NCBI GenBank assembly: GCA_017480385.1
Contig: JAFVAT010000028.1
Location: forward strand, 69,936-133,935
Length of the DNA: 64,000 nucleotides
Reading direction: 5' to 3'
Source of the DNA: Alphaproteobacteria bacterium
GTDB taxonomy: Bacteria; Pseudomonadota; Alphaproteobacteria; CAAGCB01; CAG-977
Position 1 is the stretch's first letter. Every line of letters starts with the position of its first letter. Positions 13,318-50,496 of this stretch are shown here, piece after piece. Below the pieces are notes generated by a model that was given only the letters and a program-made list of their open reading frames with translations, did no database searches and was not told the origin of the DNA. The position numbers and the translations under genes are program-made.

Positions 13318-13326
13318 TTCGTTCCT

Positions 13327-17473: not shown

Positions 17474-17737
17474 CGTTCTGCAGTCAGAGAAAAAACAACC
17501 GGTCCTGTTGGCTTCTTTTGCGAACGGAGAAAAGCAGAGAAAAAAGTCTTGAAAAGAGGAGGTTAAAGAAGGAGAAACTGACTACGGCAAAACCATGATT
17601 AAAATCTGTTTGATATATGATATTCCGACTGATTGATATGAGCCTGAAAAGAGCAAAATCATTTGAAAAGAATGGAATTATAGGTTATACATTAGGCGGT
17701 TCAATGTAAATTAGGCGAATCTTTTGGGGGTGCCGCA

Positions 17738-34201: not shown

Positions 34202-34569
34202 TAGTCTTTCCCTTTCTTATAGGTTCATTCTTGTTAATCATCGTATCCGATTTATCTAAAGTCGCAACAAAAATATAAAACCTTTTTATCCCTCCGTCCA
34301 CTCAATCCCCCTTGTGATGTCCTTGAACATCTCCGCACCCCATAAATCCAAGGCTGACGGATTTTTGATAAACGGCTTAACAAAAAACAAGTAATCGCTC
34401 TGAATTTAAGAAAACAGCGTAAGATTGTTTAATTTGGAAGGATTTGCTTCCGAAGTTGGCAGGCGCAAGCGTTGCGGCGATAAAAGTTTAATATAAAAAA
34501 CGCTTTACCGCGAAACATTCGCCCGTATCAAGAAAAACGGTTTTTCCGCTATCGGATATAAAACGAATA

Positions 34570-35040
34570 TTATCTTTCGGAGCAAGTTGGCTGAAAAGCC
34601 GTTGCTGAATTGTATATTTTAAGATAAGAAGCATCCATCTTTTGAATGATTTGATTGACACGTTCTTTAGCTTGTCTGGTATTGGGAGAATCTTCCTCAT
34701 AAACAGGCAAACGGACTTTTTTGCTGAATGCCAAAAAACAAAGCACTTTTTTATTCTCTGTATTTACAAGCAAAAGAGAACCGTTAATTTTTGAGCGGAT
34801 TATCCTTATATTCTTTTCTTGTTTTTTCGTATCGATAAAAGAATCGTAAAAACAGGAAAACCATTCACGGATTTTATGCTCTATAAAAATGACTTCCCGA
34901 TCCTTTTCTAAAATCAAATCACAAGACCCGTTTTTGGAATCCGCGATTTCATCACCGTGCAGAAAGTCAATATCGGAAAATAAGTTTTCAAAACAAGCGT
35001 TATCTTTATGAGCTTGGCAGACTTCACAGAATTTAGCCAT
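34570..35040 (-). CDS. small Cys-containing partner protein of the AAA_21 ATPase
   Basis: 156 aa; N-terminal CEVCQAHKDNAC; acidic cluster DLILEKDREVIFIEHK. 8-bp overlap with the ATPase stop. Confidence 0.5.
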   Translation of the reverse strand: MAKFCEVCQAHKDNACFENLFSDIDFLHGDEIADSKNGSCDLILEKDREVIFIEHKIREWFSCFYDSFIDTKKQEKNIRIIRSKINGSLLLVNTENKKVLCFLAFSKKVRLPVYEEDSPNTRQAKERVNQIIQKMDASYLKIYNSATAFQPTCSER

Positions 35041-36301
35041 TATTCCAAGCTTCCATAAACAAGGAATCCAGCGGAGCGGAAAGATTGGAAAAAATTTCTT
35101 CCGTATTATCCGTTACGTCTTTGATGGTGCTGTAATTTGAGCTGTCATTGATTTTTTCAGCCAAATAAAAATGCGTTTTGTTTTCTAAAACACCATATTT
35201 ATCCGCATACAGCTTCAACGCTTGAAGGAAAAACGGACTGTGTGACGTCAAAAGGATATAATATCCTTCTCTTGCCATAAGGGCTAAAATCTCGGCGTAT
35301 TTCAGTTGCCATTCCGGATGTAAATGGTTTTCAGGTTCGTCCAAAACCAGAATTGAATCCTTTTTCAAGATGCCTGATTTAACCAGAATATCCAATATTC
35401 CGAAAGATTTGGAGCCGGAAGCGATATTGGAAATGTGCAACAAATCAGCCGTAGGGGAAACTTTATACACCCATTCGTGTATTCCGTTCGGATTGATTAC
35501 GAAAGACGCTCCGTTCAAAACTTTTGCGATTTCATCGGAAACAACCGAAAAAGCCTGTTCGGAAATTTTTTCCTTAGCCGCTTCTAATTTTAATTTAATA
35601 TCGTGCCCGAAATAAAGTTTCGATTCAAAAGCGACATCCAAATACAACGGTGTATCTATAAATGTCGCATCGGCAAAGCCGAAAGCCTTGTTTTTCTCTT
35701 CAAACAGAACTTTTCCGACCGCATTGCTTTTGAAAGAAACATCCGCAATCGTAATATCCTCTTTTTTATAGGACAGGCGCGCTGTTGCATCCAAATGACA
35801 GGAGTTGTTTATTTCAGAAATGAAAGAACGCCCGAAGATTGTCACTATAATATTTTTAATCTTTTCTTCTGCCGTAGCATCGGAATTGATAAAAGCCTTC
35901 AATGTTGCCACACGTTTAAAAAAGGACGTTTCTTGCAAAGAGTTCTTTTTATAGAAATCTTCCAACTGTTCAATAAATTTGTATGCAGCGGGAGGAATGT
36001 GCCCGTTTCCTTGTAAAAGAAAATTCCTGATTTCTTGAGAGAAATTAAACAAATCCGGATCACCGGTGATGCTTTTTTCATTGATGGCATCGAAACAGAG
36101 GGACTGAATAGCGGAAGAAATCGTATTTTGTTTTAACCGTTCATACAATTCAGGATATTCGGAAATGGATTTTACGATGGCAAACAGAGCTTTGCCGATA
36201 GTGGATTTCCCGGTGTCGTTCCGTCCGGCGACAACGGTCAGACCGTTTAATTCTATATCGGCATTTTTGATTTTTCCGAAGTTTTCAATATGAAGGGTCA
36301 T
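35033..36301 (-). CDS. AAA_21/ABC-type ATPase (OLD/Rlo/Abi-like defence ATPase)
   Basis: Walker A GRNDTGKST; Walker B/D-loop LVLDEPENHLHP; signature-like TSHSP. Confidence 0.75.
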   Translation of the reverse strand: MTLHIENFGKIKNADIELNGLTVVAGRNDTGKSTIGKALFAIVKSISEYPELYERLKQNTISSAIQSLCFDAINEKSITGDPDLFNFSQEIRNFLLQGNGHIPPAAYKFIEQLEDFYKKNSLQETSFFKRVATLKAFINSDATAEEKIKNIIVTIFGRSFISEINNSCHLDATARLSYKKEDITIADVSFKSNAVGKVLFEEKNKAFGFADATFIDTPLYLDVAFESKLYFGHDIKLKLEAAKEKISEQAFSVVSDEIAKVLNGASFVINPNGIHEWVYKVSPTADLLHISNIASGSKSFGILDILVKSGILKKDSILVLDEPENHLHPEWQLKYAEILALMAREGYYILLTSHSPFFLQALKLYADKYGVLENKTHFYLAEKINDSSNYSTIKDVTDNTEEIFSNLSAPLDSLFMEAWNNG

Positions 36302-36517: not shown

Positions 36518-39500
36518 TCACGCCGCCTGATATTTCTTGAAGTTTTCGGCTTGTTCGATAACGTTTTGATACACTTCATCCTGCGGTTCGGGCGGATAGC
36601 CGTTTTCGTCCAACAAAACGATCAAGTCGGCTTGCAGAGCGGCTTTGATACTCGCTTTTTGCGACCAGTTAGCATATCGGGCTTTATCACTGACAAGGCG
36701 TTTGATTTCCTTTGCCAGAAAAATCATTTTGTCTTCAGGATAAGTGAAGCCGTATTTAACGGCGCAGGCTTTCAAAATGTCGTAAAACGCCTTTTCCTCA
36801 AAGTCGATGCCCAAAGCGACAAAAGACGTCTGCTCCGTTTGCATTTCATAAATCAAGTCGATCATTTCATCGACGATTTCGTTCAGGTCGATTTTATCCG
36901 TCCTGTCGTTATAGCGTTCCAGAATGCCGTTCAGCTTCTCGGCGAAATCGACGGCTTTGATTTTATTGACTTCGCGGAATTTGAAAATAGCGTTTTTCAG
37001 CAGCCGTTCCAGAATTTGAACGCGCGTGTTCGGACGCTTCAACGCCTGCACCCGTTCCAGATATTCGTCGCTGAACAAATCGACGGAGCAATTTTTCTCG
37101 CTTAACTTAAAGATGTCCTCGACATCGCTTGAAACAAGGGCATCCTCCACCATTTGACGCACGCGGGCGTTCATTTCGGAAATGTCGGGCGCATCACCTT
37201 TCGTCATTTTAAAGACGATGGAACGCACAGCGACGTAAAAATGAATCTGGTCACGCTCGGCAGTCGAAATTTCTTCGCTCATCAAACAGAGATTGAACGC
37301 GCTTTTCAGCCGTTTGACGTGCCACATAAACCGCTTTGTCAGTTCTTCCGTCTGTAAAACAAATTCCGCGGCATCGTTCAGGCAATCCAACCGTTCCCGA
37401 TTCTTTCCGTTAAAGTAGCGCGAAGAGTCAAAGGAATGGAACTTCTTGTTTAAAATATCCAACTCGTCTTTAACCAGAGAAACGGACGTTCCGTTATCGG
37501 TCGGCGCGCCGCCTTCCCCGCCCGTGCCGTAAGTGCCGACAGCTTCAGTCAAAGCGCGTTGAATGCCGATATAATCGACGACCAGCCCTTTTTCTTTTCC
37601 CTCATAGACGCGGTTGACGCGGGAAATCGTCTGTATCAGCGTATGCTTATGCACATACTTGTCGATATACATCGTGTCCAAAGACGGCACGTCAAAGCCC
37701 GTCAACCACATATCGACGACAATGGCGATTTTAAAGTTGGACTTGTCGTTTTTGAACTGCCGCGCCAATTCTTCCTTATCGTCTTTTTTCAGCATATTGA
37801 ACAAAGCGGGTTCGTCGTCTTTGTTATACGTCATCACCAGCTTGATTTTTTCCATCGGCTTCAAGTCGCGCTTATCCGCTTCGGTCAGGACGGCGTTTTC
37901 GGCGGCTTCTTTGGCGACCGCCCAATCGGGACGCAAAGCGATGACGTCTTTGTAAAAGTCATAAGCGATTTCCCGATCGGAACAAACGAACATCGCTTTT
38001 CCGGCAACGGTAGCCCCTTCGGAAACACGGGCTTCATAATGGGCGACAAAGTCCTCGGCGATTGCTTTCAAGCGGTCGGGGTGTCCCAGAACAGACTTGA
38101 TCGTCGCGGCTTTTTTCTTGCTTTCCTCGATTTGATATTCGTTCGCGCCCGCTTCTTCGCATTCTTCGTAGTATTTTTCGACCAGAGCCAGCTTTTCGTT
38201 ATCGACGGCGACTTTTGCCGCGCGCCCCTCATAGACGATGCGGACGGTGATGCCGTCGTTGACCGCCTGCGTCATCGTGTAGGCTTCGACAATATCCCCG
38301 AACACGTCCAAAGTCGCGTCGATCGGCGTTCCCGTAAAGCCGACATACGTCGCGTTCGGCAAGGATTGACGCAGAAAATAAGCAAAGCCGTATTTGTCCT
38401 CCACGCCTTTTTCCGAAACTTTGACGCTCTTTTGAATGTTCGTCTGGGAACGGTGCGCTTCGTCCGAAATCACGATAATGTTTTTTCTGTCGCTCAACAG
38501 CCCCGTGTCTTCGGTGAATTTCTGAACGGTCGTCAGGAATAGCCCGCCGCTGACGCGTCCGCTTAAGTTTTGCCCCAACAGAGCGCGGCTTTCGATTTGC
38601 AGAATGCAGTCGTCGCCGATGAATTTTTTGGCGTTCACGAATTGCCCCGACAACTGCCCGTCCAATTCGATACGGTCGGAAATGATTAAAATCGTCGGAT
38701 TGTTCAATTCGGACGAACGCATCAGCTTGCGGGCGAGGTAAAGCATCGTGAAACTTTTGCCGCACCCCGTCGCGCCGAAATAAGTGCCGCCTTTGTTGTC
38801 GCCGGTTTCAACGTGCTTCAAAATGTTTTTGTAAAGGCTGTTCGTCGCGTAAAATTGCGGATAGCGGCAAACGATTTTCAATTCCTTGTCCGATTTGTCG
38901 GGAAAGTAGATAAAATCGCGCAAAACGTCCAAAAGCGCGTCCCGATTGAACAGCCCGTCCAACATCGTGTAAAGGGCTTTGACGCCGTCCGCCTCCTCTG
39001 CCGTTCCTTTACTGCGCCAAGCGTAAAAATTGTTCAGATCGGCAAAGACGGAACCGACTTTCGTATTAACGCCGTCCGAAATGACAATAAAAGCGTTGTA
39101 TTTGTAAATCTCCGGAATATCGCGGCGGTAACGCACGGTCAGCTGCCTGAACGCGTCCTCGATCGTGATTTCCTCTTTAACGGGCGTTTTCAGTTCCATC
39201 ACGACGACGGGCAAACCGTTGATGAAAACGACGACGTCGGGAATGCGCGTTTCGCTTGCGCCTTTAACGGTAAATTGATTAACGACTTTAAACAGGTTTG
39301 CGTCCGGCGCATCATAGTCGATCAGGCGGATCAGAACGTCTTTATCCTGCGGATTGTCGCGGTGAAAAATAACGCCGGTTGAAATGATTCGGAAAATTTC
39401 GCGGTTGGAATCATACAAAGCCCCCGCTCCGGCGGAGTAATTATCCAGCGTTTTTATGAACCGCGCGCGCTCCGCTTCGGTCAATTCGGGATAACGGGAT

Positions 39501-39643
39501 TCCAGATAAGCGACCAAGTCTTCGCGCAAAAGCACGTCGGACAAGTCGCGCTCAATATCATCGCCGTGAACGTAAGTGAAGCCGTTTTCCTCCAGCCGTT
39601 CAACGACGACCTGTTCCAACGAAGCTTCATTAAACCGGCGCAT
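36518..39643 (-). CDS. hsdR: Type I restriction enzyme R subunit
   Basis: Walker A ATGCGKSFT; DEAH box VISDEAHRSQ; HsdR-type N-terminus. 1041 aa. Confidence 0.92.
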   Translation of the reverse strand: MRRFNEASLEQVVVERLEENGFTYVHGDDIERDLSDVLLREDLVAYLESRYPELTEAERARFIKTLDNYSAGAGALYDSNREIFRIISTGVIFHRDNPQDKDVLIRLIDYDAPDANLFKVVNQFTVKGASETRIPDVVVFINGLPVVVMELKTPVKEEITIEDAFRQLTVRYRRDIPEIYKYNAFIVISDGVNTKVGSVFADLNNFYAWRSKGTAEEADGVKALYTMLDGLFNRDALLDVLRDFIYFPDKSDKELKIVCRYPQFYATNSLYKNILKHVETGDNKGGTYFGATGCGKSFTMLYLARKLMRSSELNNPTILIISDRIELDGQLSGQFVNAKKFIGDDCILQIESRALLGQNLSGRVSGGLFLTTVQKFTEDTGLLSDRKNIIVISDEAHRSQTNIQKSVKVSEKGVEDKYGFAYFLRQSLPNATYVGFTGTPIDATLDVFGDIVEAYTMTQAVNDGITVRIVYEGRAAKVAVDNEKLALVEKYYEECEEAGANEYQIEESKKKAATIKSVLGHPDRLKAIAEDFVAHYEARVSEGATVAGKAMFVCSDREIAYDFYKDVIALRPDWAVAKEAAENAVLTEADKRDLKPMEKIKLVMTYNKDDEPALFNMLKKDDKEELARQFKNDKSNFKIAIVVDMWLTGFDVPSLDTMYIDKYVHKHTLIQTISRVNRVYEGKEKGLVVDYIGIQRALTEAVGTYGTGGEGGAPTDNGTSVSLVKDELDILNKKFHSFDSSRYFNGKNRERLDCLNDAAEFVLQTEELTKRFMWHVKRLKSAFNLCLMSEEISTAERDQIHFYVAVRSIVFKMTKGDAPDISEMNARVRQMVEDALVSSDVEDIFKLSEKNCSVDLFSDEYLERVQALKRPNTRVQILERLLKNAIFKFREVNKIKAVDFAEKLNGILERYNDRTDKIDLNEIVDEMIDLIYEMQTEQTSFVALGIDFEEKAFYDILKACAVKYGFTYPEDKMIFLAKEIKRLVSDKARYANWSQKASIKAALQADLIVLLDENGYPPEPQDEVYQNVIEQAENFKKYQAA

Positions 39644-39655
39644 TTTATAAAATCC

Positions 39656-40297
39656 TTAAACTCTGGCTATATTATGAACATCTACATAAGGAAGCAATTT
39701 TTCAAAAAAAGTTTCATCAGAGAAAACTTCTTTAAGTTTATTCAAAGCTATCAAATAAGGATGATTTTCAGAAAAACCGGATAATATAAGTAATTCCCGT
39801 TCTGTTGACGACTCCCCATTTAACATTTTAAAGGATTTTTCTGCTAAATTAGCCATACTCCGTTGCGCAGAAATATCTCCACTTTGAGCTTTTTCATTAA
39901 GCATTCGCATATCCGCGAAATAGCGCTTCACTCCGAAATTAAAGTTACGTAAAAATCCGGAAAAAACTAAAAGTTTTTGAGAAATTTCTTCCGAAAAAAG
40001 GTGCTTTGCATTCATTGAAGCAATTAAAAAACGAGAATTTAAAGCATCTAAATATCTGATAGAATCTTCTTGAGAAAAGCATCCTAAATAACCATTTAGA
40101 AAACCGATGTTTGTATCGCTATTTTTAACCATTGATCTTACTTCGTTTATAACAGACAAACATTCCATTCTTTTTTCAAGCAACGCTATTTTCACAGCCT
40201 GTTCTTGCATTTTGGTTTGGCGTTTTAAAATGAAAGCCTGCACGCAACCTATTAATACGAGTAAAAACGTTGAAACTTCTTCCAAATGTATTGACAT
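39656..40297 (-). CDS. hypothetical protein with N-terminal TM helix, embedded between hsdS and hsdR
   Basis: ORF 39656..40441 overlaps the upstream gene by 76 bp. The internal ATG (MSIHLEE, SD AGAGGA) at 40297 is the more plausible start. Confidence 0.4.
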   Translation of the reverse strand: MSIHLEEVSTFLLVLIGCVQAFILKRQTKMQEQAVKIALLEKRMECLSVINEVRSMVKNSDTNIGFLNGYLGCFSQEDSIRYLDALNSRFLIASMNAKHLFSEEISQKLLVFSGFLRNFNFGVKRYFADMRMLNEKAQSGDISAQRSMANLAEKSFKMLNGESSTERELLILSGFSENHPYLIALNKLKEVFSDETFFEKLLPYVDVHNIARV

Positions 40298-40365
40298 CTT
40301 AAAATCCTCTGTCCTTTTGATAAAAGGATCATAAGATTTTTTTGGAAAAAATACAATGCTCTGCC

Positions 40366-41208
40366 TTACCCTTTCTTTAATCCCTTTAAAAACTCTGCCA
40401 TATTGTTTTTGCGGGTAGTGTTGTCTTTGATCAGAATGCAAAACAACAATAATTGATACAATTCGTCATACCACTTTTCCAATTCTTCAGCGGAAAGAGT
40501 CTCAATCAAAGGATTTTTATTTTTTCCCGAACGGTTGTTATGGCGAATATCCAAATTGTTTAAAAGAGCGCGGGCTTTATCAAAATAGTCTGAAAAGCAG
40601 TCAACACCCTTTCTCAATAATGGTTCATATTCTAAAGCGATTTGACTAAGCAGTTTCCGCTTTTCCGTCAAATTTCCTTTTAAAGAGCCGTGATGATACA
40701 TCAAAATAGCAAAAGCGGTATCTTCGGACGACAATTCGGCAACAGCTGTCGCCGCCGGATTTTTAGGAATCAAAATAACTTTTTCTTCATCTTCGAAATA
40801 ATGTTCTTCATAGTGCAGATGATCTAACAAAAGTGTTATATTTTGAAGAAGCATAATATATTTATCGTCATATCGAAATTCCGTTCCAAATCCGATTTTT
40901 TTCTGCATTAATCTGATAATGTTTAGGAAATATTCTAACATTTTTATTTTTTCTGTTAATGTCGTTATGTTTTTATTCGGAATTAGCTTCTCCCGCATTT
41001 CTGAACAAGATAAACAGCTATGCCGTTGTTTCCAAAAAGCAAATAAAAATTTATCTACGATAGCCTCTATATTGAATTCTCCTTGCTTCAACGTAAGAGT
41101 ATCCGTATATAGAAATAACGGTTGAAAAAATAAAGTTGCTATTTTTCCCATTTCCTCGTCAATATCATATTTTTCCTGTAAAAGTTCGAAAATATTTTTT
41201 CTGGACAT
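40366..41208 (-). CDS. hypothetical protein (280 aa), embedded between hsdS and hsdR
   Basis: Starts 2 bp after the hsdS stop; lower GC than the hsd genes. Confidence 0.5.
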   Translation of the reverse strand: MSRKNIFELLQEKYDIDEEMGKIATLFFQPLFLYTDTLTLKQGEFNIEAIVDKFLFAFWKQRHSCLSCSEMREKLIPNKNITTLTEKIKMLEYFLNIIRLMQKKIGFGTEFRYDDKYIMLLQNITLLLDHLHYEEHYFEDEEKVILIPKNPAATAVAELSSEDTAFAILMYHHGSLKGNLTEKRKLLSQIALEYEPLLRKGVDCFSDYFDKARALLNNLDIRHNNRSGKNKNPLIETLSAEELEKWYDELYQLLLFCILIKDNTTRKNNMAEFLKGLKKG

Positions 41209-41210
41209 AG

Positions 41211-42554
41211 TTAAACCTCATCATTGACAGAGGGCAAGGACACGTTTTCGACATCTAATTTGCCGCCAAGGAGTTGGGGCAAGAGCGTGTCGCGAGTTTG
41301 TTCCAGCGTGCGGATTTGTTTGCTGTTTTCTATGATTTTTTCAAAAAAAGCTGAAACTAGATTTTGGAAACGAATCAATATGTTTACATCTGGTATAATG
41401 ACTTTCAATTCAGATACTTTCGTTTTATTCAAATTTTGTTGAGCAGCCCCATTAGCCGCTAATGCGTAAGTGTTTTGGTTCGCTTTTGCAAGCAGATAAA
41501 CATAATAAATAGTATGCTTGTATGGAATAAGCGCACAACAGGCTTGATTGGCTGAAACATCTATCCCTAGTAAAGTAGATTCTCCTGCTGTTGCTCCGTA
41601 CATAGCAACAACGGTTGTGTATTTTTTCCATATTTTTGCTGATGAGTTCCGCAGACCTTCTTCGGAAATTTTTTCTTTTGTATGGATTATTATAGGAAAA
41701 TTTACTTCCCCCGAAGATAACCATGGTATTGTTGGAGGATACCAATACTCTTTAATATTGCGTTTCGGCGTTCCTCCACTTTGAATATCAGAACATAAAT
41801 CTTCGATTTTCCCAAGTTTCCAGCCTTGCGGGAGGTAGTCAGGGGTGAAGGCGGAGGGAAACAGGGCGCAAAGGTCGGGGGTGATGTGGTATTTTTTGCA
41901 AATGTCTTCGGTCGGCGTGCCGGCGGCTTTGGCGCGGACGATATCGAAATCGACGAACCAAGACTGAAACACGGCTTGCGCCATTTGTTCCAACGTCTTG
42001 TTCTGTTCGCGCAACACTTCGATCTTGTCGTCCAACGCCCCCAATATCCCCGCAATCTTCCGCTGAATTTCAAGAGGTGGGAAGAGAAAAAATTCCTCTC
42101 CCAACGGAGTAGCTTCTATACGTTGTCTTCCAGATGTTCCATTCATAAGAGAAATGGCTCTTTCTCTGAAATCGGGAGAAATTGCCAAATAATACAAGAA
42201 CAAAGCATCTGAAACGCCATCTTTTTTCCGAAGGACTATAAATTCTGTTGAACCGAAGGCTATTTCTCCCTCTTCTAATATATCGACAAAAGCTGTTTTT
42301 CCATTTTCTAAGCACGGAGTTATACGCGCTAATAAAGTATCTCCTTTTTGAAATTTTGCTCCGGAAGAATAGCTTTCTTCTGTAAATCCCCCTATCTTCC
42401 GACAAAACGGAGTAAGCTTTTCCATCCCTATTTTTTTTACAATGCTACCTTTTGAGATAGATGTTTTCGGGTTTAAACAACAAAAATCTTTAATTTGAAT
42501 ATTCCGCCATTCAATCATTTTCAGATCCTGCGAATAAATCTTTTTCGAATTCAT
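41211..42554 (-). CDS. hsdS: Type I RM specificity subunit
   Basis: Two target-recognition domains separated by the conserved central helix (...ILGALDDKIEVLREQNKTLE...) and a C-terminal conserved helix (LPQLLGGKL). Confidence 0.85.
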   Translation of the reverse strand: MNSKKIYSQDLKMIEWRNIQIKDFCCLNPKTSISKGSIVKKIGMEKLTPFCRKIGGFTEESYSSGAKFQKGDTLLARITPCLENGKTAFVDILEEGEIAFGSTEFIVLRKKDGVSDALFLYYLAISPDFRERAISLMNGTSGRQRIEATPLGEEFFLFPPLEIQRKIAGILGALDDKIEVLREQNKTLEQMAQAVFQSWFVDFDIVRAKAAGTPTEDICKKYHITPDLCALFPSAFTPDYLPQGWKLGKIEDLCSDIQSGGTPKRNIKEYWYPPTIPWLSSGEVNFPIIIHTKEKISEEGLRNSSAKIWKKYTTVVAMYGATAGESTLLGIDVSANQACCALIPYKHTIYYVYLLAKANQNTYALAANGAAQQNLNKTKVSELKVIIPDVNILIRFQNLVSAFFEKIIENSKQIRTLEQTRDTLLPQLLGGKLDVENVSLPSVNDEV

Positions 42555-43047
42555 TTAATACTTTTTGATTATAAGAGTTTTTATATACGTTCATATAATT
42601 ATCAGCAAAATCAAGTGTATAATTTAACTGAAAAACTATGATTAACAATGCAAAGTGTATTGATGATACATGTAAAATATCATAATAATCATATTTAAAA
42701 TTAAATACACTTAAAAAAAACAGAAAAATCAACGAAAACAAGCATAATTTTAAAAATTTTTTATTATCTTGTATAAAGCCCTCGAACATATTATGTTTTT
42801 TCATATAAAAATTAATCTCTTTATTAGAATATGTTGCCAATAAAAAAGATTGCGAAAAAGCAAAAACAATAGAAATACATGTAATTGCATCAGAAATCAA
42901 ATCTTCCTTTAATGAAAAAAATGGGCTCAACATCAAAAAAAGGAAAAGTATAAACACCCTATACTTTTTTAAAAATTTCTTCGACCTCATAATATCCTTC
43001 CTCTTTTTCAAACTCAAAAATTTCTTTTGCAATGACACTTTCTTCAT
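42511..43047 (-). CDS. small multi-pass membrane protein (start uncertain, possibly 42990)
   Basis: Three or four hydrophobic helices; very AT-rich; overlaps both neighbours. Confidence 0.4.
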   Translation of the reverse strand: MKKVSLQKKFLSLKKRKDIMRSKKFLKKYRVFILFLFLMLSPFFSLKEDLISDAITCISIVFAFSQSFLLATYSNKEINFYMKKHNMFEGFIQDNKKFLKLCLFSLIFLFFLSVFNFKYDYYDILHVSSIHFALLIIVFQLNYTLDFADNYMNVYKNSYNQKVLNEFEKDLFAGSEND

Positions 43048-43714
43048 TAATAGAAATAAAACCGTCAGAAGTTTCTCCTTTAATGTTAAATGTTTTTATA
43101 TATGTCGGCCGCCTTAACTTCTTATATAAATTTATTATATAGTCTTCATTAAGAGGTCTTTTAAATTCCATTTTTATAGTCGTTGTTTCTGGAGGCTCTT
43201 TCTCATCTAAATCATCTCCCCAATGCGGATTTAAAAATTCATTGATGAATAAATCATTTGTAGCAGTAATAGAAACAGATTCTATTGATTTTACCTGCTT
43301 AATGAAATCATCAATGGATGTTGAAACTGCTAACAAATTACACGAAAAATTTTTATCAGAATCATGCAAAAGATTTAATATTACATTTCTTTTATTATTA
43401 TCCGAACACAAAACTCTATCTTGATAAATTACAAATATAAATTGATTTGTCATATGAATAACTTCATCTGATAAAACACTATCATCATATATTTTCAAAT
43501 TTCGATCATAGCATCTATTCGGCCATGATTTACCATAAGATACTAAAAAAACTATCTTTGTTTCATCCATCATATAACGTATTGTATATGTAACATTTTT
43601 TAGAGGGAAATCTATAATATTTTTATCTTTTAAATAATTTTCTAAAATTCGTTTTGCCGCTCCTAATAGGTCTACGCATTCAGGGATATAGTTAAACATA
43701 CGTACAGTGCTCAT
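42959..43714 (-). CDS. hypothetical protein (251 aa), hsd-embedded cargo
   Basis: Clean AT-rich ORF co-directional with the hsd array. Confidence 0.45.
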   Translation of the reverse strand: MSTVRMFNYIPECVDLLGAAKRILENYLKDKNIIDFPLKNVTYTIRYMMDETKIVFLVSYGKSWPNRCYDRNLKIYDDSVLSDEVIHMTNQFIFVIYQDRVLCSDNNKRNVILNLLHDSDKNFSCNLLAVSTSIDDFIKQVKSIESVSITATNDLFINEFLNPHWGDDLDEKEPPETTTIKMEFKRPLNEDYIINLYKKLRRPTYIKTFNIKGETSDGFISINEESVIAKEIFEFEKEEGYYEVEEIFKKV

Positions 43715-43725
43715 TTTTCATTATC

Positions 43726-43959
43726 CTAAAATTTTTCTCTTCCGTTAATTATCGTATCCAATTTATCCAAAGTATCAACCAAATTATAGGCTTCATCGTT
43801 TGATTTAAGCCAATTCAGAGAGTCCGCAATCAACAGCTTTTTGGCTTCGTCGCCGATGTCCGTCCTTGCCAATATCCGCCGGATTTTCGATTTATGAAAT
43901 TCTTTTATCAATCCGTGTAAAAGAAAAAACTTTAAATTCATTCTGTCGCCCTTTTGCAA
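43726..43959 (-). CDS. hypothetical small protein (77 aa)
   Basis: ORF 11 bp upstream of the 251-aa gene; weak support. Confidence 0.3.
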   Translation of the reverse strand: MQKGDRMNLKFFLLHGLIKEFHKSKIRRILARTDIGDEAKKLLIADSLNWLKSNDEAYNLVDTLDKLDTIINGREKF

Positions 43960-44057
43960 TTTAGAAATCCGGTTAATTATCCTATCCGATTTATTAAAAG
44001 TCGCAACCGGATTTACAGATTTTGCCCCCTTCCCTTTCGTCCGCTCCTCTCCTTTTT

Positions 44058-45362
44058 TTATTCTGAAACGCTGACAATCTGCGGCACGGCATATAACGGC
44101 AAGTCGGTTAGTTTGTTTTCCTGCTTAAATGTGGCGGCGGACAGACGGACGGCACGGTTCGGATTGAACTTTTCCATATACCATTTCAGGCTTTTCGCCC
44201 GCAGGTTTGTCGAGGCTTTGACTTCGACGGGAACGATCTCCGAACCGGTTTGAATGATGAAATCGATTTCGTTCGTGCCGCTCTCGTTCGCCCAATACGC
44301 CAAAGGCATCTCCGGCAGATTTTTCAACTCCTGCAAAACGTATTGTTCCGTCAAAGCCCCTTTGAACTCTTCAAAAATATCCGACGGCGACAACAGTGCT
44401 TTTGCATCAAGCGACGACATCGCCGATAAAAGTCCGACATCGGAAACATAGATTTTGAACGCCGTCAAATCCTGATACGCGACGAGGGGAAGATCTGGTT
44501 TCTTCACCCGATAGACTTTATAAATCAGTCCGCAGGCTTCCAACCACGTCAGCGCGTTTTCAAATTCTTTCGCCCGCGCCCCTTTCTGAATTTTGCTGTA
44601 AATGAACTTCTTGTTTTCCTTTGCCAGTTGTCCCGGAATAGACGACCAGAGCATTTTCAATTTGGGAAGTCCGTCCTTCGGAATATGCTTTGAAAAGTCG
44701 TTTTCATAGGAACGCAAAATCGCTTGTTGCAAAGAGCGCACTTCCTGATAATCCCTGTGTTCGGCAAACGCTTTGACGACTTCGGGCATACCGCCGACAT
44801 AAAAATACCGTTTGACCCAATCGATAAAAGTATCGTGTAAAGGCGTCAGAACAGCGAAATTGTTTTTTCTGATCTGCTCCAGAGCCATATCCTGCCCCAT
44901 AGCGGACAGAAATTCGTAAAAGCTCAGCGGATAGAGGTTCAAAAATTCGACTTTCCCGACCGGAAAGGACATTCCGCCGTGTAAAGCGACGCCCAACAGA
45001 CTGCCCGCCGCTATGATGTGATATTCGGGCTTTTGTTCGTAAAAGTATTTCAACGATGTCAGAGCGTTCGGACTTTCCTGAATTTCATCGAAAATAATCA
45101 GCGTGTCGTTCGGCGTGATTTTAAATCCGGCAAGGATTCCCAGACTTTCCAAAAGTCGATCCGTGTTGACGTCTTTTTCAAACAGGGCTTTCAGCTGTTC
45201 GTTTTGTTCAAAAATGAAGTAAGCGACTTTGGAAAACCGCAATCGCCCGAATTCTTGCATCAGCCACGTCTTGCCGACCTGACGCGCCCCTTGAACGATC
45301 AGAGGCTTCCGGTTTTGCTTGTCTTTCCATTCATTCAGTTGCTTTAACGCAATCCGTTCCAT
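44058..45362 (-). CDS. AAA+ ATPase of the DUF4143/AAA_14 family (second copy, distinct sequence)
   Basis: Walker A GARQVGKTWL; Walker B IIFDEIQ. Confidence 0.75.
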   Translation of the reverse strand: MERIALKQLNEWKDKQNRKPLIVQGARQVGKTWLMQEFGRLRFSKVAYFIFEQNEQLKALFEKDVNTDRLLESLGILAGFKITPNDTLIIFDEIQESPNALTSLKYFYEQKPEYHIIAAGSLLGVALHGGMSFPVGKVEFLNLYPLSFYEFLSAMGQDMALEQIRKNNFAVLTPLHDTFIDWVKRYFYVGGMPEVVKAFAEHRDYQEVRSLQQAILRSYENDFSKHIPKDGLPKLKMLWSSIPGQLAKENKKFIYSKIQKGARAKEFENALTWLEACGLIYKVYRVKKPDLPLVAYQDLTAFKIYVSDVGLLSAMSSLDAKALLSPSDIFEEFKGALTEQYVLQELKNLPEMPLAYWANESGTNEIDFIIQTGSEIVPVEVKASTNLRAKSLKWYMEKFNPNRAVRLSAATFKQENKLTDLPLYAVPQIVSVSE

Positions 45363-45503
45363 TCCGTTTTTGCTCCTGTTTTACATTTTTTCAAACGAAC
45401 TTGTGTGGATATATTACACTTTTTCAAAGGAAGTTGAAACATAAAACAACGTTTTTTCAAAGGAACTTTCGCGCTCACGCTACACTTTTTCAAAGGAACA
45501 TTA

Positions 45504-46478
45504 TCATTTTCCCGATTTTTTGCCGTTCAATATGCTGATAACGATTTGTTTCATCGTTTCCATTTCCTCCGGTTTGCTTTCAGCGATCAAAACGGTCAGC
45601 GCGAACAACGTCGCGTTATCAATCACAGGCGCACCGTTGCGATACAAAATGCCGTTCCTGTCCAGAAAATAAAGGAAGCAAGCCGCGCCGATACGTTTGT
45701 TTCCGTCCGAAAAGCCGTGATTCTTAACCACAAAATAAAGCAACATAGCGGCTTTTTCCTCTAACGCCGGATAACAATCCCGCCCGCCGAATGTCTGGTA
45801 TATCTGGTTCACGGAACTGTCGAAACTGTCGTCTTTCGGATTGGCGAAAACAGCGGAAGCGAACGCCGGTTTCATTTTGTCAATGACGGATAAAAATTCC
45901 TCTTTTGTAACGACGACCGCCGGTTTTACGGTTTTTCCTTTGGTATCAAGCGTTTTATTGTCATAGTCGTCAAGCAAATCCAATCCTGCGGCAAAATCCG
46001 CCATTAACGCGCTGAATTTTTTCGCCTCGTCCAAGTTGTCCGCCTGATGCTCAATACTGCGGTTTAACAGCCTGATCGCGTTTTGTAACTGCGCGACTTT
46101 GGATTTTTGTTCTTGTAACCGCTTTTCATTCAAAGCGTAACCGTCAACGAGGTATTTTTTCAAAACCGTACTGACCCATCGCCGAAAAGCGGAAGCCTTT
46201 GCCGAATTGGCTCTGTATCCGACCGCCAGAACAACGTCCAGACTGAAAAACTCTACGGGTCTGTCAGAATTTGGAATGTGCATTTTTTGCACATTGCTTT
46301 TTTTATCAAGTTCTTCCTGATTGAAAATATTGTTGATATGTCGGGATACGCCCGAACGGTCTATTTCAAACAGTTCGGCTATTTCATTTTTATTCAGCCA
46401 AACCGTTTCGTTTTTCCGGTCGATTTGCACATCAATGCAAGCGTATGACTCGTAAATGATTTCCAAACTGTTGCTCAT
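45504..46478 (-). CDS. RhuM-family N-terminal domain fused to Fic/Doc domain
   Basis: RhuM blocks (ETVWLNKNEIAELFEIDRSGVSRHINNIF; DVVLAVGYRANSAKASAFRRW) and Doc-type Fic motif HGFSDGNKRIG. TAAATG junction with hsdM. Confidence 0.75.
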   Translation of the reverse strand: MSNSLEIIYESYACIDVQIDRKNETVWLNKNEIAELFEIDRSGVSRHINNIFNQEELDKKSNVQKMHIPNSDRPVEFFSLDVVLAVGYRANSAKASAFRRWVSTVLKKYLVDGYALNEKRLQEQKSKVAQLQNAIRLLNRSIEHQADNLDEAKKFSALMADFAAGLDLLDDYDNKTLDTKGKTVKPAVVVTKEEFLSVIDKMKPAFASAVFANPKDDSFDSSVNQIYQTFGGRDCYPALEEKAAMLLYFVVKNHGFSDGNKRIGAACFLYFLDRNGILYRNGAPVIDNATLFALTVLIAESKPEEMETMKQIVISILNGKKSGK

Positions 46479-47990
46479 TTATACCCACCCGATTTGCGCC
46501 AGATTTGCTTTGATTTGTGCGTCGAGTTCCGCGCCTTTCGCCATTTGCGCGTTCAAGTCCGCCACCAACGCCGCCATTTTCGTTTCAAATTCTTCCCGGC
46601 TTGTCTCGGTTTCCTCTATGCCGACATAGCGTCCGGGGGTCAGGGTGTAGTCGTTCGCCGCGATCTCCGCCAAGTCCGCCGATTTGCAAAAGCCTTTGAC
46701 GTCTTTGTATTCGGGGGAGCCTTTGCGCCAGTCGTGATAGGTCTTCGTGATTTTCGCGATGTCTTCGTCCGAAAAGTCGCGGTGCGTCCTGTCCGCCATA
46801 AAGCCGACGTTGCGCGCGTCGATGAACAGCGTTTCCTTGCGTTCCCTGTTCTTGCGGATAAACCACAGGCAAGCCGGGATCTGCACGGTGAAAAACAACT
46901 GCGCGGGCAAAGCGATCATACATTCGACAAAGCCTTTTTCTATCAGCGCGCGGCGGATTTTGTCCTCTCCGCCCGTCGAAGAACTCATCGACCCGTTCGC
47001 CATAACAAAGCCCGCAACGCCCTTGTCGCTCAACTTGGACAGCATGTGCAAAATCCAGCCGTAGTTCGCGTTGCCCGCAGGCGGTACTTCAAAACCGTTC
47101 CAGCGCGGATCGTCCGTCAGTTCGCTTTCGGCGCGCCATTCTTTCAGATTGAACGGCGGATTGGCTAAAATAAAGTCGGCTTTCAGGTCTTTGTGCTGGT
47201 CTTTGGAAAAAGTGTCCGCCGGCATCGCCCCCAAGTCCGCCGAAATCCCCCTTATGGCAAGGTTCATCTTTGCCAGCTTCAATGTCGCGGAGTTCTGCTC
47301 CTGTCCGAAAATGGCGATGTCGTTCGTTTCTCCGCCGTGCGCCGCGATGAACTTCGCCGACTGAACGAACATTCCGCCCGAACCGCAGCACGGGTCATAA
47401 ACGCGCCCTTTATACGGCTCGATCATTTCGGTCAGCAGGCGGACAATGCACTTCGGCGTGTAGTATTCGCCGCCCTTTTGTCCCTGCGACGCCGCGAACT
47501 TGCCCAAGAAATACTCATACACCCGCCCGAACAGGTCGAAGTCGTGAGAATCTATTTTGATTTGATTGATGATGTCCACCAGAGCCGACAGCTTCGATAC
47601 GTCCATCGTCAGCCGCGAATAAAAATTGTCGGGCAACGCGCCTTTCAAAGCCTCGTTGTTCTTTTCGATTTCCGCCAAAGCCGTATCGATCAACAGCGGC
47701 AGATCGGGCTTTTTCGCGTTCCCGATCAGATACGACCAACGAGACGCGGGTGTCAGGTAAAAGACGTTTTCGCTCATATAAAAAACGGGATTGTCAATAT
47801 ACTTTTCGCGCCCAATCGCGATCAGTTCGGCACGGCGGGCATCAAACCGATCCCCCGCGTATTTCAAAAAGATCAATCCTAAGCAGACGTTCATATAGTC
47901 ATATGAAACAACCGTCCCCCGCAATTTGTTCGCGGAATCCCACAGCAGTTCCTCCAACGACTTTTCGGCTTTTTTGATTTGTTTGGGCAT
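46479..47990 (-). CDS. hsdM: Type I RM DNA methyltransferase subunit
   Basis: NPPF motif (ILANPPFNLKEW) and AdoMet motif DPCCGSGGMF. Start probably at MPKQIKK. Confidence 0.9.
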   Translation of the reverse strand: MPKQIKKAEKSLEELLWDSANKLRGTVVSYDYMNVCLGLIFLKYAGDRFDARRAELIAIGREKYIDNPVFYMSENVFYLTPASRWSYLIGNAKKPDLPLLIDTALAEIEKNNEALKGALPDNFYSRLTMDVSKLSALVDIINQIKIDSHDFDLFGRVYEYFLGKFAASQGQKGGEYYTPKCIVRLLTEMIEPYKGRVYDPCCGSGGMFVQSAKFIAAHGGETNDIAIFGQEQNSATLKLAKMNLAIRGISADLGAMPADTFSKDQHKDLKADFILANPPFNLKEWRAESELTDDPRWNGFEVPPAGNANYGWILHMLSKLSDKGVAGFVMANGSMSSSTGGEDKIRRALIEKGFVECMIALPAQLFFTVQIPACLWFIRKNRERKETLFIDARNVGFMADRTHRDFSDEDIAKITKTYHDWRKGSPEYKDVKGFCKSADLAEIAANDYTLTPGRYVGIEETETSREEFETKMAALVADLNAQMAKGAELDAQIKANLAQIGWV

Positions 47991-48204: not shown

Positions 48205-48757
48205 TTATGGTTCAGGAATCTTAAAACAACGGATAAATTCGCCGTTCATACATTCATAACTCGCGACCGTCCGGCGCAAATCGTGCATATGCAAATTTGA
48301 AAGTTGAGCGCGTTTTTTGATTCTGTCCCAGACTTTTCTCGGCTCTTTCAAGTGCTCCTCCGGATTTAACAGACGCGGAAACACCCACAGATTTCCGCCG
48401 GACTGCAATTTCAATTCTTCCAGCTTGATCGTCAGCTGTTCCACCAACGGCACGCACAACGAAGTCCCGTTTTTGGTTCGGGCGACATACCAAATACCCG
48501 TCTTGAAATCGACATCTTCCCATCGCATGGAAAGGACATTTCCTCGTCTTTGTCCCGTAAAAAGCAACACACAACCGAAAGCTGATCAACCAACGGAACA
48601 TGCATTGACGTGCCGTTTTTCGTTCGCGGAATATGCCAGATGTTCGTCGAGAAATGAATATCCTCCCAACGCATTGACAGGACATTTCCGCACCTCTGCC
48701 CCGTATAAAGAAGCGTAAAAACAAGACGAGATACCTTAACTCTATCCGATTATCCAA
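48205..48757 (-). pseudogene. tyrosine recombinase/integrase remnant (frame-disrupted, truncated before catalytic Tyr, contains internal tandem duplication)
   Basis: Box I-like GQRRGNVLSMRWEDVDF and HxxR-like LHMHDLRRT read in one frame. A second frame carries a diverged duplicate MRWEDIHFSTNIWHIPRTKNGTS. No intact ORF of integrase length. Confidence 0.6.
48442..48715 (-). repeat. diverged ~130-bp tandem duplication inside the integrase remnant
   Basis: 48442-48570 vs 48587-48715, about 75% identity (accaacgg.ac...gtcccgtttttggttcg.g... / ggacatttcc). Confidence 0.5.
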
Positions 48758-48994: not shown

Positions 48995-49702
48995 TCAAAA
49001 GCCTTTGAAATACTTTGAAATATCCATAGCAGGAACTGTACCTAATAATCGCAGCCTATCAACAAAAGCCATAAAAAAAGAAAGTAAAGAATCTTTTTCA
49101 TCTAATGATAAAATATAATTATTTTCATGCCATAGCCAACTCTTTCCTTTCACACAACACCCTATGTCGAGAAAATCTAAAGCATCATATGAACATTTCT
49201 TTTGTATCAGTCTATCCTCCCACGCTTTATTTGTCGTAAGCAACCCAGCAATAATATGAGGAGGTTCACGACCGGGCATTAATGTTCCATTACAATAAAC
49301 TGGAGCTGTTGTTCTTCTTAGTTGACGTACTGATTGCGCTTTTTGTTGTGCGTATTCAAAATTTTCCTGAGAGAGGCTTTGTTTAACTTCAAAAACGGCA
49401 TAAACACTTTCAATTGGTATATACTTAACCCCATCTTGATTAAAAATGAATGGTGAAAAATATTCATCATATATTACTATATCTATCTGATCACTTATGC
49501 TGCCATTATAATCAACGACAAAAGCTTTATTACACGAATATCTTTTGGGAAGATATTCATTAAAAAAAACTCGCCACGCTTCTTCCGTAAGATCACCTTT
49601 CGCAGGAGAATGCGTACATTGTTGCTTCATTTTTAGATACATTTGTTGTTGTAATGCACTAAACAATCCCGATACATCTATTACCATATTACCTGTTTCC
49701 AA
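48995..49702 (-). CDS. predicted PD-(D/E)xK-fold nuclease-like protein, partner of the nucleotidyltransferase
   Basis: Candidate motif: D in QIDIVIYDE followed by AVFEVKQ (D...E-x-K). 22-bp overlap with the NTase gene stop. About 28% GC. Confidence 0.45.
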   Translation of the reverse strand: METGNMVIDVSGLFSALQQQMYLKMKQQCTHSPAKGDLTEEAWRVFFNEYLPKRYSCNKAFVVDYNGSISDQIDIVIYDEYFSPFIFNQDGVKYIPIESVYAVFEVKQSLSQENFEYAQQKAQSVRQLRRTTAPVYCNGTLMPGREPPHIIAGLLTTNKAWEDRLIQKKCSYDALDFLDIGCCVKGKSWLWHENNYILSLDEKDSLLSFFMAFVDRLRLLGTVPAMDISKYFKGF

Positions 49703-50496
49703 TTGCTCGTATTAAAAAACTTTTGAGCTTGTTCAACGACCTTTTGTTTTTCATACTGTGTCATATCATTAGAAATAATGTTTGCAGAATTAAATGGATC
49801 TATCAAATTGTCCCTAAAAAAATCATTAATATAATAATTCATAATATCATGAAAGCCCTTTTCAAGACTTATATTATGACTGCAGCCATATAATGCCTTT
49901 AAAACTGATAATTCAATATTCATTGACGGAAAATCGAGTTGATGACAATCTCTCCATATTTTAATTAATTTTATGAAATTTTGTCGACCAGAATCTTGAA
50001 TATGCTTAATGTGTCCTTTTACGTTCGTTTGTGTCCAAGTACTCTGTTTTGATTTGTAAAGACTATGAAAATTAGAATTAATTTCATGTTGTCTAGCAGG
50101 TACAATATCTATATCTATTTGTCTGTATCCATTAGTCAACCCTTTAATCCCTATAGATACATTCTGCTGACGTACAGAAAAACCTTGTTGTCTCCCCAAA
50201 TTGGCTAATCTATCAAATAATGAACCATAAATATCTTTAAGCGGATCCATACAAGAACTTTTAATTGAAACAAAGAGATCAACATCAGATTTTCCTTTGA
50301 CAGCAACTCCTTTTGCGGAAGAACCTGCTATAAAAAACTCATTCAAATAGCCATTGCTCCATTGAGATATTGTGGGATAAAAAAATTTTTTTACTTCATT
50401 TCCCAATAATAAACCATCATCATTATTTTTATTATTTAATACACTTTGTAAATACATATACTTAAACTCCTCATTTTCCATTAAAAAAAACATCAA
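49681..50496 (-). CDS. minimal Pol-beta-superfamily nucleotidyltransferase (CD-NTase/SMODS-like)
   Basis: GS-x9-DhD motif IAGSSAKGVAVKGKSDVDLFVS and a downstream third-acidic strand QIDIDIVP. 271 aa. Confidence 0.55.
   Translation of the reverse strand: MMFFLMENEEFKYMYLQSVLNNKNNDDGLLLGNEVKKFFYPTISQWSNGYLNEFFIAGSSAKGVAVKGKSDVDLFVSIKSSCMDPLKDIYGSLFDRLANLGRQQGFSVRQQNVSIGIKGLTNGYRQIDIDIVPARQHEINSNFHSLYKSKQSTWTQTNVKGHIKHIQDSGRQNFIKLIKIWRDCHQLDFPSMNIELSVLKALYGCSHNISLEKGFHDIMNYYINDFFRDNLIDPFNSANIISNDMTQYEKQKVVEQAQKFFNTSNWKQVIW

Follow-up and report, generated by a model that had tools for sequence, protein, structure and literature searches.

It is already established that Type I restriction-modification (R-M) operons can carry embedded defence genes, and the phenomenon itself is not new. 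PrrC, the textbook restriction-guarding toxin, is an anticodon nuclease encoded between hsdS and hsdR and is embedded in the EcoprrI Type I operon. Here we describe a Type I operon with seven embedded genes, located in a 64,000-nucleotide (nt) stretch of contig JAFVAT010000028.1 from an alphaproteobacterium (this whole stretch is called the window), and compare it with the closest described systems. TgvAB is embedded in a Type I operon of V. cholerae VPI-2 (PMC11411939), and in enteropathogenic Escherichia coli (EPEC) DarTG2 lies between hsdS and hsdR, a site proposed as a recombination hotspot (PMC12255303). A systematic “guilt-by-embedding” survey has yielded a catalogue of PDC candidates (Payne et al. 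2024, bioRxiv 10.1101/2024.01.29.577857). According to the description cited in PMC11411939, the restriction-linked open reading frames (ORFs) of Campylobacter jejuni (rlo genes, Miller et al. 2005) are variable ORFs found among hsd genes.

The locus resembles these embedded systems in that its nested genes are co-directional and use the hsdS–hsdR junction hotspot, and two of its products, a RhuM-Fic fusion and an AAA_14/DUF4143 ATPase, match entries PDC-S23 and PDC-S01 of the guilt-by-embedding catalogue. It differs from them in combining five or six separate cassettes, spread over two occupied slots, within a single operon, in encoding four proteins (o251, o178, o280 and o261) that match no PADLOC v2 model, and in having its cassette borders marked by 33-base-pair (bp) repeat arrays and a leader. 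With the rlo genes, as far as that cited description goes, it shares variable unrelated ORFs interspersed among the hsd genes of close strains; the host here is an uncultured gut or rumen alphaproteobacterium, and the likeness is one of description.

We consider it likely that an apparently intact Type I operon serves here as a scaffold with two exchangeable slots for independent defence-type cassettes. Slot A would be the interval between hsdM and hsdS, holding RhuM-Fic and its probable companion o77, the DUF4143 ATPase cassette between them and the o251/o178 cassette; slot B would be the interval between hsdS and hsdR, holding o280 and the orphan o261. The arrangement would provide layered immunity, in which incoming DNA that lacks the modification is cut by the Type I enzyme and the embedded cassettes act as a backup against phages that escape restriction. 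The value of the locus lies in the concrete, testable candidates that it provides. What is new is the evidence for a RexAB-like o251/o178 family missed by the Pfam, NCBIfam, PHROGs and PADLOC models tried, the recognition that o280 represents a large family with a stereotyped position and without a known fold, and the junction elements (the 33-bp repeat array and the shared leader).

The hsd frame and its slots

The minus strand carries ten co-directional ORFs, arranged head to tail, between positions 36518 and 48050, in the order from hsdM to hsdR (lengths in amino acids, aa):

46479–47990, minus strand: hsdM (ORF extending to TTG 48050), PF02384 N6_Mtase, E 1e-107
45504–46478, minus strand: RhuM-Fic fusion, 324 aa, PADLOC PDC-S23, E 8e-114
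44058–45362, minus strand: AAA_14/DUF4143 ATPase, 434 aa, PADLOC PDC-S01, E 9e-182
43726–43941, minus strand: o77, 71 aa (77 aa from TTG 43959), no family match
42959–43714, minus strand: o251, no family match at the sequence level
42511–42990, minus strand: o178, membrane protein, 159 aa from M20 (ORF extending to 43047), no family match
41211–42518, minus strand: hsdS (ORF extending to 42554), two Methylase_S matches, E 2e-28
40366–41208, minus strand: o280, no family match
39656–40297, minus strand: o261, 213 aa from M49 (ORF extending to TTG 40441), no family match
36518–39643, minus strand: hsdR, 1041 aa, TIGR00348, E 4e-148

The gene order, shared strand and domains of a ten-gene hsd operon, as proposed in the initial annotation, were confirmed by matches to Pfam, PADLOC and NCBIfam. 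Besides PF02384, HsdM carries HsdM_N (PF12161, E 6e-17) and matches the PADLOC model MTase_I (E 4e-175), as expected of a Type I modification subunit. HsdS has two target-recognition domains, the Methylase_S match falling in two stretches, and matches Specificity_I in PADLOC (E 2e-92). HsdR combines HSDR_N, SWI2_SNF2/ResIII, T1R_D3-like and T1RH-like_C domains, is of the HindI-like T1RH-like_C type, and scores 495 bits against TIGR00348, for which the cutoff is 285. All three ORFs are full length, and the R-M operon that they form is apparently intact.

The most likely start codons were used to compute the lengths of the junctions, which from hsdM to hsdR are 0, 141, 98 (116 if o77 begins at ATG 43941), 11, −32, −8, 2, 68 and 12 nt. 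Six of the nine are therefore 12 nt or shorter, and the earlier description of overlaps or short gaps at most junctions holds. For hsdM, ATG 47990, with a GAGAGGA ribosome-binding site, is a likelier start than TTG 48050. The most likely start of o261 is M49 (ATG 40297), which is preceded by an AGAGGA ribosome-binding site and gives a protein of 213 aa, the length of its sole homologue; that of o178 is M20 (ATG 42990), from which its homologues align; and for o77 homologue alignment and ribosome-binding sites favour ATG 43941. The five proteins o77, o251, o178, o280 and o261 belong to no family in Pfam, NCBIfam, PADLOC or PHROGs, in agreement, at the sequence level, with the earlier statement that the hypothetical proteins lack recognisable domains. 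Weak library matches of these five ORFs (AgrB, 0.06; RAG2, 0.015; gop, 0.003; ATP-synt_E_2, 0.04) were dismissed as noise.

A search with HsdM led to metagenome-assembled genomes (MAGs) of uncultured gut and rumen Alphaproteobacteria, in which four sister loci (L001 to L004) encode HsdM proteins 90–98% identical and hsdR products 84–98% identical to those of the window; the hsdM of L001 is 98% identical. A Neisseria-type uptake sequence, considered as a hint to the host, occurs only once and says nothing about it. All four keep the hsdM...hsdS...hsdR frame, and o251, o178, o280 and o261 are missing from every one of them. Among the close relatives L001 to L005, the ATPase is found only in L001 and o77 only in L002, and RhuM-Fic is present in L002, L003 and L005 and missing from L001 and L004; it is also present in L086. 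Other genes fill the sister slots, including experimentally validated defence systems. Slot B of L003 carries Thoeris (ThsA-Macro and ThsB-TIR) together with MazF, that of L001 a PD-Lambda-5_A homologue (E 2e-62) with a partner, and that of L004 a Fic gene; HEPN/MNT pairs occupy slot A in both L003 and L004, and the slots of L002 contain AAA_15/AAA_21 ATPases and a PDC-S32-like protein. In three distant loci (L008, L009 and L057) the operon is a plain hsdM-hsdS-hsdR, with hsdR starting about 1.3–1.4 kb past the end of hsdM, a space sufficient for hsdS alone. The hsd locus therefore does exist in relatives without the four hypothetical genes, both in the sisters and at a distance, and the frame is constant while the cargo varies across L001–L005 and L086–L095, which supports the reading of the initial annotation that the operon is a hotspot with cargo.

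One of these loci, L005 (CAVCSV010000047.1), is a 7.9-kb contig labelled Limosilactobacillus gorillae, with an hsdM 89% identical to that of the window and a RhuM-Fic in the same order. Its label points either to a binning contaminant or to a recent transfer.

The blocks of identity shared with the sisters have sharp ends. Nucleotide identity to L001 (95%) and L002 (93%) begins exactly at the hsdR ATG (39643), and identity to the sisters ends no more than a few codons from the hsdM stop. Within hsdS, only the central region (41817–42091, 275 bp) and the 3’ end are conserved with the sister loci, the central block at 81–92% nucleotide identity, and the recognition domains are divergent. L002 contains, between two ATPase cargo genes, an orphan fragment of an hsdS 3’ end (17499–17604), which is 83% identical in protein to residues 412–446 of the window HsdS and 83% identical in nucleotides to 41216–41321; it looks like the scar of a past recombination in slot B. 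From this pattern we infer that recombination between conserved stretches of the hsd genes exchanges the cassettes along with the adjoining target-recognition domains. The swapping would most likely be homologous and anchored in hsdM, the hsdS core and hsdR, because the identity blocks end at such places. The mosaic of sister loci, the sharp breakpoints and the junction elements described below make the locus a tractable system for studying cassette exchange and expression within an operon.

Base composition separates the inserts less uniformly than the initial annotation had proposed, according to which all seven are more AT-rich than the hsd genes. The guanine-plus-cytosine (GC) content of the enzyme genes is 0.54 for hsdM, 0.50 for hsdR and 0.41 for hsdS, and that of genes elsewhere in the window averages 0.447 (standard deviation 0.073). 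The claim stands for o77 (0.36), o251 (0.27), o178 (0.23), o280 (0.33) and o261 (0.32), and fails for RhuM-Fic (0.446) and the ATPase (0.472), which have an ordinary composition, on par with the window gene mean and above hsdS. Judged by composition, five of the seven inserts are foreign.

At the front of slot A, RhuM-Fic abuts the hsdM stop with no gap. The fusion contains a Virulence_RhuM domain (E 2e-17) and a Fic domain (E 9e-11), whose catalytic motif, HxFx(D/E)GNxR, is satisfied by HGFSDGNKR at residue 254, and it matches PDC-S23 over its full length (residues 7–319). The ATPase likewise matches PDC-S01 over its full length (residues 1–429) and contains DUF4143 (E 2e-37), AAA_14 (E 3e-28), a weak NERD match and the Walker A sequence GARQVGKT. 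By these matches, both are already catalogued embedded defence candidates. A copy of the ATPase 98% identical to that of the window lies directly after hsdM in L001, the cassette being 93% identical in nucleotides, and in L002 RhuM-Fic and o77 are about 185 nt apart with no ATPase between them. Taken together, these two arrangements imply that the window has an L002-like order into which an L001-type ATPase was inserted; in other words, the ATPase is, on this comparison, a single-gene cassette that landed between RhuM-Fic and o77. The o77 product is a small, helical, basic protein with homologues only directly after RhuM-Fic (93% identity in L002 and 50% in L121), and because of this it is probably a companion of RhuM-Fic, not a part of the o251 cassette. 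A 71-aa ORF preceding the o251 relative of L149 was considered as a further o77 homologue and rejected.

Both families have paralogues in the window. Another member of the RhuM family (230 aa, E 4e-71) is encoded next to a 921-aa DinG-like helicase (Helicase_C_2) at 12625–16092 on the minus strand. On the plus strand, at 16271–21219, lies a second restriction island, which comprises a paralogous AAA_14/DUF4143 ATPase gene (16271–17473) and, at 17738–21219, two D12-class adenine methyltransferase genes and an AlwI-family endonuclease gene with a GC content of 0.31–0.33. The RhuM and DUF4143 paralogues each occur twice, each time beside genes for defence-type or nucleic-acid enzymes.

Two elements, a repeat array and a leader, mark the cassette borders. 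Between RhuM-Fic and the ATPase (45382–45499, minus strand) there are four direct repeats of GTTCCTTTGAAAAAGTGTA with an exact period of 33 bp; 0.05 matches would be expected against the four observed, and the rest of the window is free of the motif. The array recurs at the start of slot A regardless of the neighbouring genes, with four copies after hsdM in L001 (11553–11665), two in L002 (12493–12539) and three in L086/L089 (5268–5347). The array may serve as an operator or promoter, or mark a recombination junction; a possible analogy is the R-M/DarTG island of E. coli, where RptR binds direct repeats (PMC12255303). The second element is a 72-nt leader (43972–44043, minus strand) containing TTGCGA-N17-AGGATAAT, which is common to the window, L001 and L002 and stands before different cargo genes. 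A 42-nt copy of it with 81% identity (43744–43785) falls within the 3’ end of o77, shortly before o251, and includes a promoter-like match (43778–43751). We regard the leader as a candidate internal promoter, and the conservation of such promoter-like leaders suggests that the cargo may have sources of expression besides hsd transcription. A terminator scan gave fewer matches than shuffled sequence and zero at the gene junctions, and is uninformative in either direction on whether the operon forms a single transcript.

The o251/o178 pair and RexAB

Phage lambda encodes RexB, a protein of 144 aa with four membrane helices, behind rexA. The pair o251/o178 has the same layout, a soluble protein of about 250–280 aa followed by a four-helix membrane protein of about 140–160 aa. 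A two-domain fold of the RexA/RdgC type is a candidate for the soluble protein, and we lean towards the view that the pair works like RexAB. In that case o251, as a cytosolic RexA-fold protein, would sense an infection cue and open or disrupt its four-helix membrane partner o178, and the membrane potential would collapse in an abortive infection. Its interest lies in a family of 45 representatives at 50% identity, in the predicted RexA-like fold, in the RexAB architecture and in the tie to restriction systems; confirmation would carry abortive infection of the RexAB type far beyond the lambdoid prophages.

The window o251 has been deposited as hypothetical protein IJ752_06970 of an Alphaproteobacteria MAG. 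Its close relatives form 29 clusters with 49–100% identity, none of them annotated, and a profile search of 1.84 billion representatives recovered 45 relatives (representatives at 50% identity), many of 262–286 aa, so that members of the family range over 240–286 aa. In L090, L091–L093 and L094–L095 the interval from hsdM to hsdS contains an o251 homologue and, behind it and immediately before hsdS, a homologue of o178, with o178 identities of 66% in L090, 43% in L091 and 53% in L094; the Type I system of L090 is only 23–30% identical to that of the window. More distant o251 relatives keep the partner in other settings:

P0153 in L140: partner follows, in another Type I operon
P0160 in L139: partner follows, after a BsaWI-like Type II enzyme and its methylase
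P0167 in L143: partner follows, the pair alone among housekeeping genes
P0183 in L146: partner follows, near a reverse transcriptase
P0152 in L148: short contig, the partner overlapping by 32 nt

A small hydrophobic partner of 139–175 aa thus stands behind all five of the distant relatives with enough downstream DNA, P0155 (L149) being outside this count as its contig ends before any position that a partner could take. Over all loci with downstream sequence, a membrane partner of 138–175 aa with three or four hydrophobic segments follows in nine of nine. The pair is found in five independent Type I operons (the window, L090, L091, L094 and L140), and the pairing persists among relatives only about 20% identical in unrelated contexts. 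Because the partner recurs in Type I, Type II, lone and reverse-transcriptase contexts, the genomic evidence presents o251/o178 as an autonomous two-gene unit, often though not always lodged in restriction systems. In the window o178 has four hydrophobic helices, and its gene shares 32 nt with o251 and 8 nt with hsdS. When aligned, partners of the o178 type all end in a Y-x-N-x-Y tail that is invariant and takes the form YKNxY in five of six sequences.

The AlphaFold2 model of o251 (predicted local distance difference test, pLDDT, 77) comprises two alpha/beta domains that meet near residue 141 (boundaries at about 141/143/235). Foldseek against the PDB placed two chains of lambda RexA (8twq) at ranks 1 and 2, with E values of 1.6e-4 and 8.6e-4 and probabilities of 1.0 and 0.98, at a TM-score of 0.29, and yeast Iml3 at ranks 3 to 5. 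RexA, RdgC and IML3/CHL4 are one fold class, and RexA has a hinge at residues 140–142 and a dimerisation domain at 143–234 (PMC11077077); the domain boundaries of the o251 model agree with these positions. Remote homology and structure prediction, which the initial annotation had proposed for the hypothetical proteins, gave RexA as the best PDB match of the o251 model and no fold match for o280.

A set of results weighs against a RexAB-like function. Neither o251, o178 nor 39 aligned relatives of o251 have a Pfam or PADLOC match, so that membership in the RexA sequence family does not emerge from these libraries; hhalign alignments of o251 with lambda RexA and with a four-sequence RexA alignment gave probabilities below 1%; the profile-profile comparison of the o178 alignment with RexB was negative; and bridging to Pfam RexA through the 39 distant relatives gave zero RexA matches. 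The sequence-profile search of the PDB with o251, as with o280, returned nothing or spurious GCN4 coiled-coil matches. The fourth membrane helix of o178 and RexB have a short IVFQL match, which was not significant and was set aside. The structural link is a Foldseek match with the low TM-score given above on a model of medium confidence, and the o251 family is acidic, with an isoelectric point (pI) of about 5–6 against 8.6 for RexA, so that DNA binding may not be shared. RexAB is prophage-borne, and o251 relatives were not found among IMG/VR viral contigs, GenBank phages or plasmids; instead of lying in a temperate phage next to a repressor gene, the pair is chromosomal, mostly nested in R-M operons or standing alone. 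The Y-x-N-x-Y tail of its partners is a further, family-specific difference. On sequence grounds, o251/o178 is consequently not filed as a member of the RexA or RexB families.

The same results can be read as signs of a membrane-linked pair mechanistically unrelated to RexAB, for example a toxin-antitoxin system or another sensor/effector pair, whose match to RexA reflects only a generic alpha/beta fold of the RdgC/Iml3 type. Such a pair would explain why every sequence-level test for RexA or RexB is negative, why Iml3 scores nearly as well as RexA at a TM-score of only 0.29, and why the family is acidic and not prophage-borne. We find this explanation somewhat unlikely, however, since RexA ranks first and second above all other PDB chains with a probability of 1.0, since the order of a soluble and then a membrane protein, the sizes (251/159 against 279/144) and the four-helix partner all match RexAB, and since the pairing persists at about 20% identity across unrelated contexts. 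There is also a precedent: the P. putida pair PP_5643/PP_5644 (PMC12894663) is of the RexAB type and, like o251/o178, unrecognisable by BLAST; it was recognised through remote homology and structure only and was later validated.

The o280 family and the orphan o261

The o280 gene begins 2 nt past the hsdS stop. Its 280-residue product is on record as hypothetical protein IJ752_06955 from an Alphaproteobacteria MAG. Clustering at 90% identity divides its family into at least 535 clusters, which typically share 51–60% identity with the window protein and in no case have a Pfam domain or an informative name. The family is found in gut and rumen metagenomes, and its named hosts are only the alphaproteobacterial MAG and Candidatus Avelusimicrobium, a genus of Elusimicrobiota. 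Between hsdS and hsdR it occurs in Candidatus Avelusimicrobium, with gaps of 2–3 nt around it, in a Cas9-bearing genome and in alphaproteobacterial relatives. Positional statistics were drawn from 42 metagenome loci, of which 31 were informative upstream and 30 downstream: hsdS precedes o280 in 27 of the 31, usually within 60 nt, and hsdR follows in 27 of the 30. In about one third of the loci 1–3.6 kb of extra cargo lies between o280 and hsdR, like o261 in the window. The exceptions are L097, where o280 is preceded by hsdR, AbiH and an uncharacterised gene, with a reverse transcriptase nearby, L133, where it is beside a WYL regulator, and L137, where it is beside an integrase. As with o251, relatives were not found among viral contigs, GenBank phages or plasmids. 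The identity of o280 is 44–56% where HsdR is 28–43% identical, and only 68% where HsdR is 89% identical; this mismatch indicates that the history of o280 is decoupled from that of the enzyme.

The AlphaFold2 model of o280 is confident (pLDDT 88.6) and shows an N-terminal alpha/beta part and a helical C-terminal half with a 40-residue terminal helix. Foldseek found no match for it in the PDB (best E 0.28) or in BFVD (best E 0.22). Its invariant residues, which include W59, R62, E92, N96, Y171, H173, K183, E193, E195, H223-N224-N225, D248, D262 and R266, look like an active site or an interface. A relationship to DUF3644 or DUF5677, which neighbour hsdR in other loci, was considered, and on comparison the proteins proved unrelated.

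In position, o280 corresponds to PrrC: the gene sits between hsdS and hsdR and hardly ever occurs outside Type I operons, an exclusiveness otherwise known for PrrC alone (Payne et al. 2024, bioRxiv 10.1101/2024.01.29.577857). It differs from PrrC in having no match to an ABC-type ATPase or an anticodon nuclease in Pfam, NCBIfam or the PADLOC PrrC model, and in its unmatched predicted fold. A position as stereotyped as that of PrrC combined with a confidently predicted structure of unmatched fold is what makes the family of interest. A guard-type mechanism for o280 is a conjecture by analogy, according to which it would be a single-protein effector or sensor with expression translationally coupled to hsdS and hsdR, and may monitor the restriction complex as PrrC does. 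The joint proposal that o280 is a new, structurally unprecedented guard wired to Type I enzymes, which would fire upon phage anti-restriction, and that o251/o178 is a chromosomal, R-M-associated branch of the RexAB type, is a long shot.

The other occupant of slot B, o261, has one N-terminal membrane helix and a good ribosome-binding site, and its 213-aa form has one homologue (99% identical) among 5.8 billion proteins. At the same position L086–L089 carry an unrelated 263-aa protein with RNCITH, a HEPN-like motif; this ORF was examined as a possible o261 homologue and rejected, as there is no similarity. The o261 gene appears to be the orphan occupant of a variable sub-slot, merely sharing the slot with o280, and may be dispensable. 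The initial annotation had treated the hypothetical genes as two like pairs. This stands for o251/o178, which is a conserved cassette, and not for the other two, o280 being a widespread single gene and o261 an orphan.

Two further explanations bear on the scaffold with exchangeable slots. In one, o280, and perhaps other inserts, would be a dedicated accessory subunit or regulator of a Type I subtype instead of independent cargo; it might assist assembly, control restriction alleviation or act, in the manner of PrrC, as a latent toxin that works only when bound to the complex. The tight coupling of o280 to hsdS and hsdR could have this meaning, and o280 has no catalytic motif or fold identifiable in the sequence libraries, the PDB or BFVD. 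The regular presence of hsdS immediately upstream and hsdR downstream, the gaps of 2–3 nt kept between Elusimicrobiota and Alphaproteobacteria, the T1RH-like_C HsdR of nearly all loci examined, and the many invariant polar residues and invariant 40-residue C-terminal helix, which suggest an interaction surface, are all in its favour. A true subunit, however, should hardly be absent from sister loci with 84–98% identical HsdR, all of which lack o280, nor occur without flanking hsdS and hsdR, as it does beside the WYL regulator, beside the integrase and after hsdR and AbiH; and separate histories are indicated by o280 identities of 44–56% where HsdR is at 28–35%, and of 68% where HsdR is at 89%. 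We judge this explanation unlikely.

In the other explanation most of the inserts would be selfish modules for addiction or stabilisation, or horizontally acquired DNA in decay, which persist because the hsd locus tolerates insertions and which add nothing to immunity. Its best candidates are o77 and o261, which may be non-functional, or even spurious or degenerating ORFs: the first start of o77 is non-ATG and the gene contains the duplicated leader, and o261 has its single homologue. The Fic/Doc, MazF and HEPN/MNT modules in the window and its sister loci, together with the very low GC content of 0.23–0.36, also fit such an origin. As an account of the inserts in general it appears quite improbable, since many residues of o251, o178 and o280 are invariant in diverse hosts, a clear sign of purifying selection, the sister slots hold experimentally validated defence systems within what is a defence island, and the ribosome-binding sites and tight coupling are intact. 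The scaffold with two exchangeable slots is accordingly the reading that we prefer.

Surrounding genes

The operon has defence-type neighbours on both sides. Upstream of hsdM are a CBASS cyclase gene (49681–50496, minus strand; PADLOC Cyclase, E 1e-72, SMODS) and a gene for a NucC-type nuclease effector (48995–49702, minus strand; E 1e-76, DUF6602), which form a CBASS-like pair with a GC content of 0.29–0.34. Downstream of hsdR, an ABC-type AAA_15/AAA_21 ATPase of 422 aa (35033–36301, minus strand), which resembles HEC-02A, NsnB and PD-T4-4_A, is followed by two low-GC unannotated ORFs of 156 and 305 aa, the latter with a GC content of 0.24 and a weak SLATT-like match; together they make up a module (33284–36301) that is probably another defence module. 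With the CBASS pair and the ABC-type ATPase on its flanks, the hsd operon is part of a larger defence island.

Farther away, two adjacent ORFs of 294 and 299 aa (9692–11448, minus strand), with a GC content of 0.28–0.31 and no significant family, form a compositionally foreign islet. Between the CBASS pair and hsdM, a 167-aa ORF contains a 131-nt tandem duplication (48434–48710), whose copies are 73% identical at a spacing of 146 nt.

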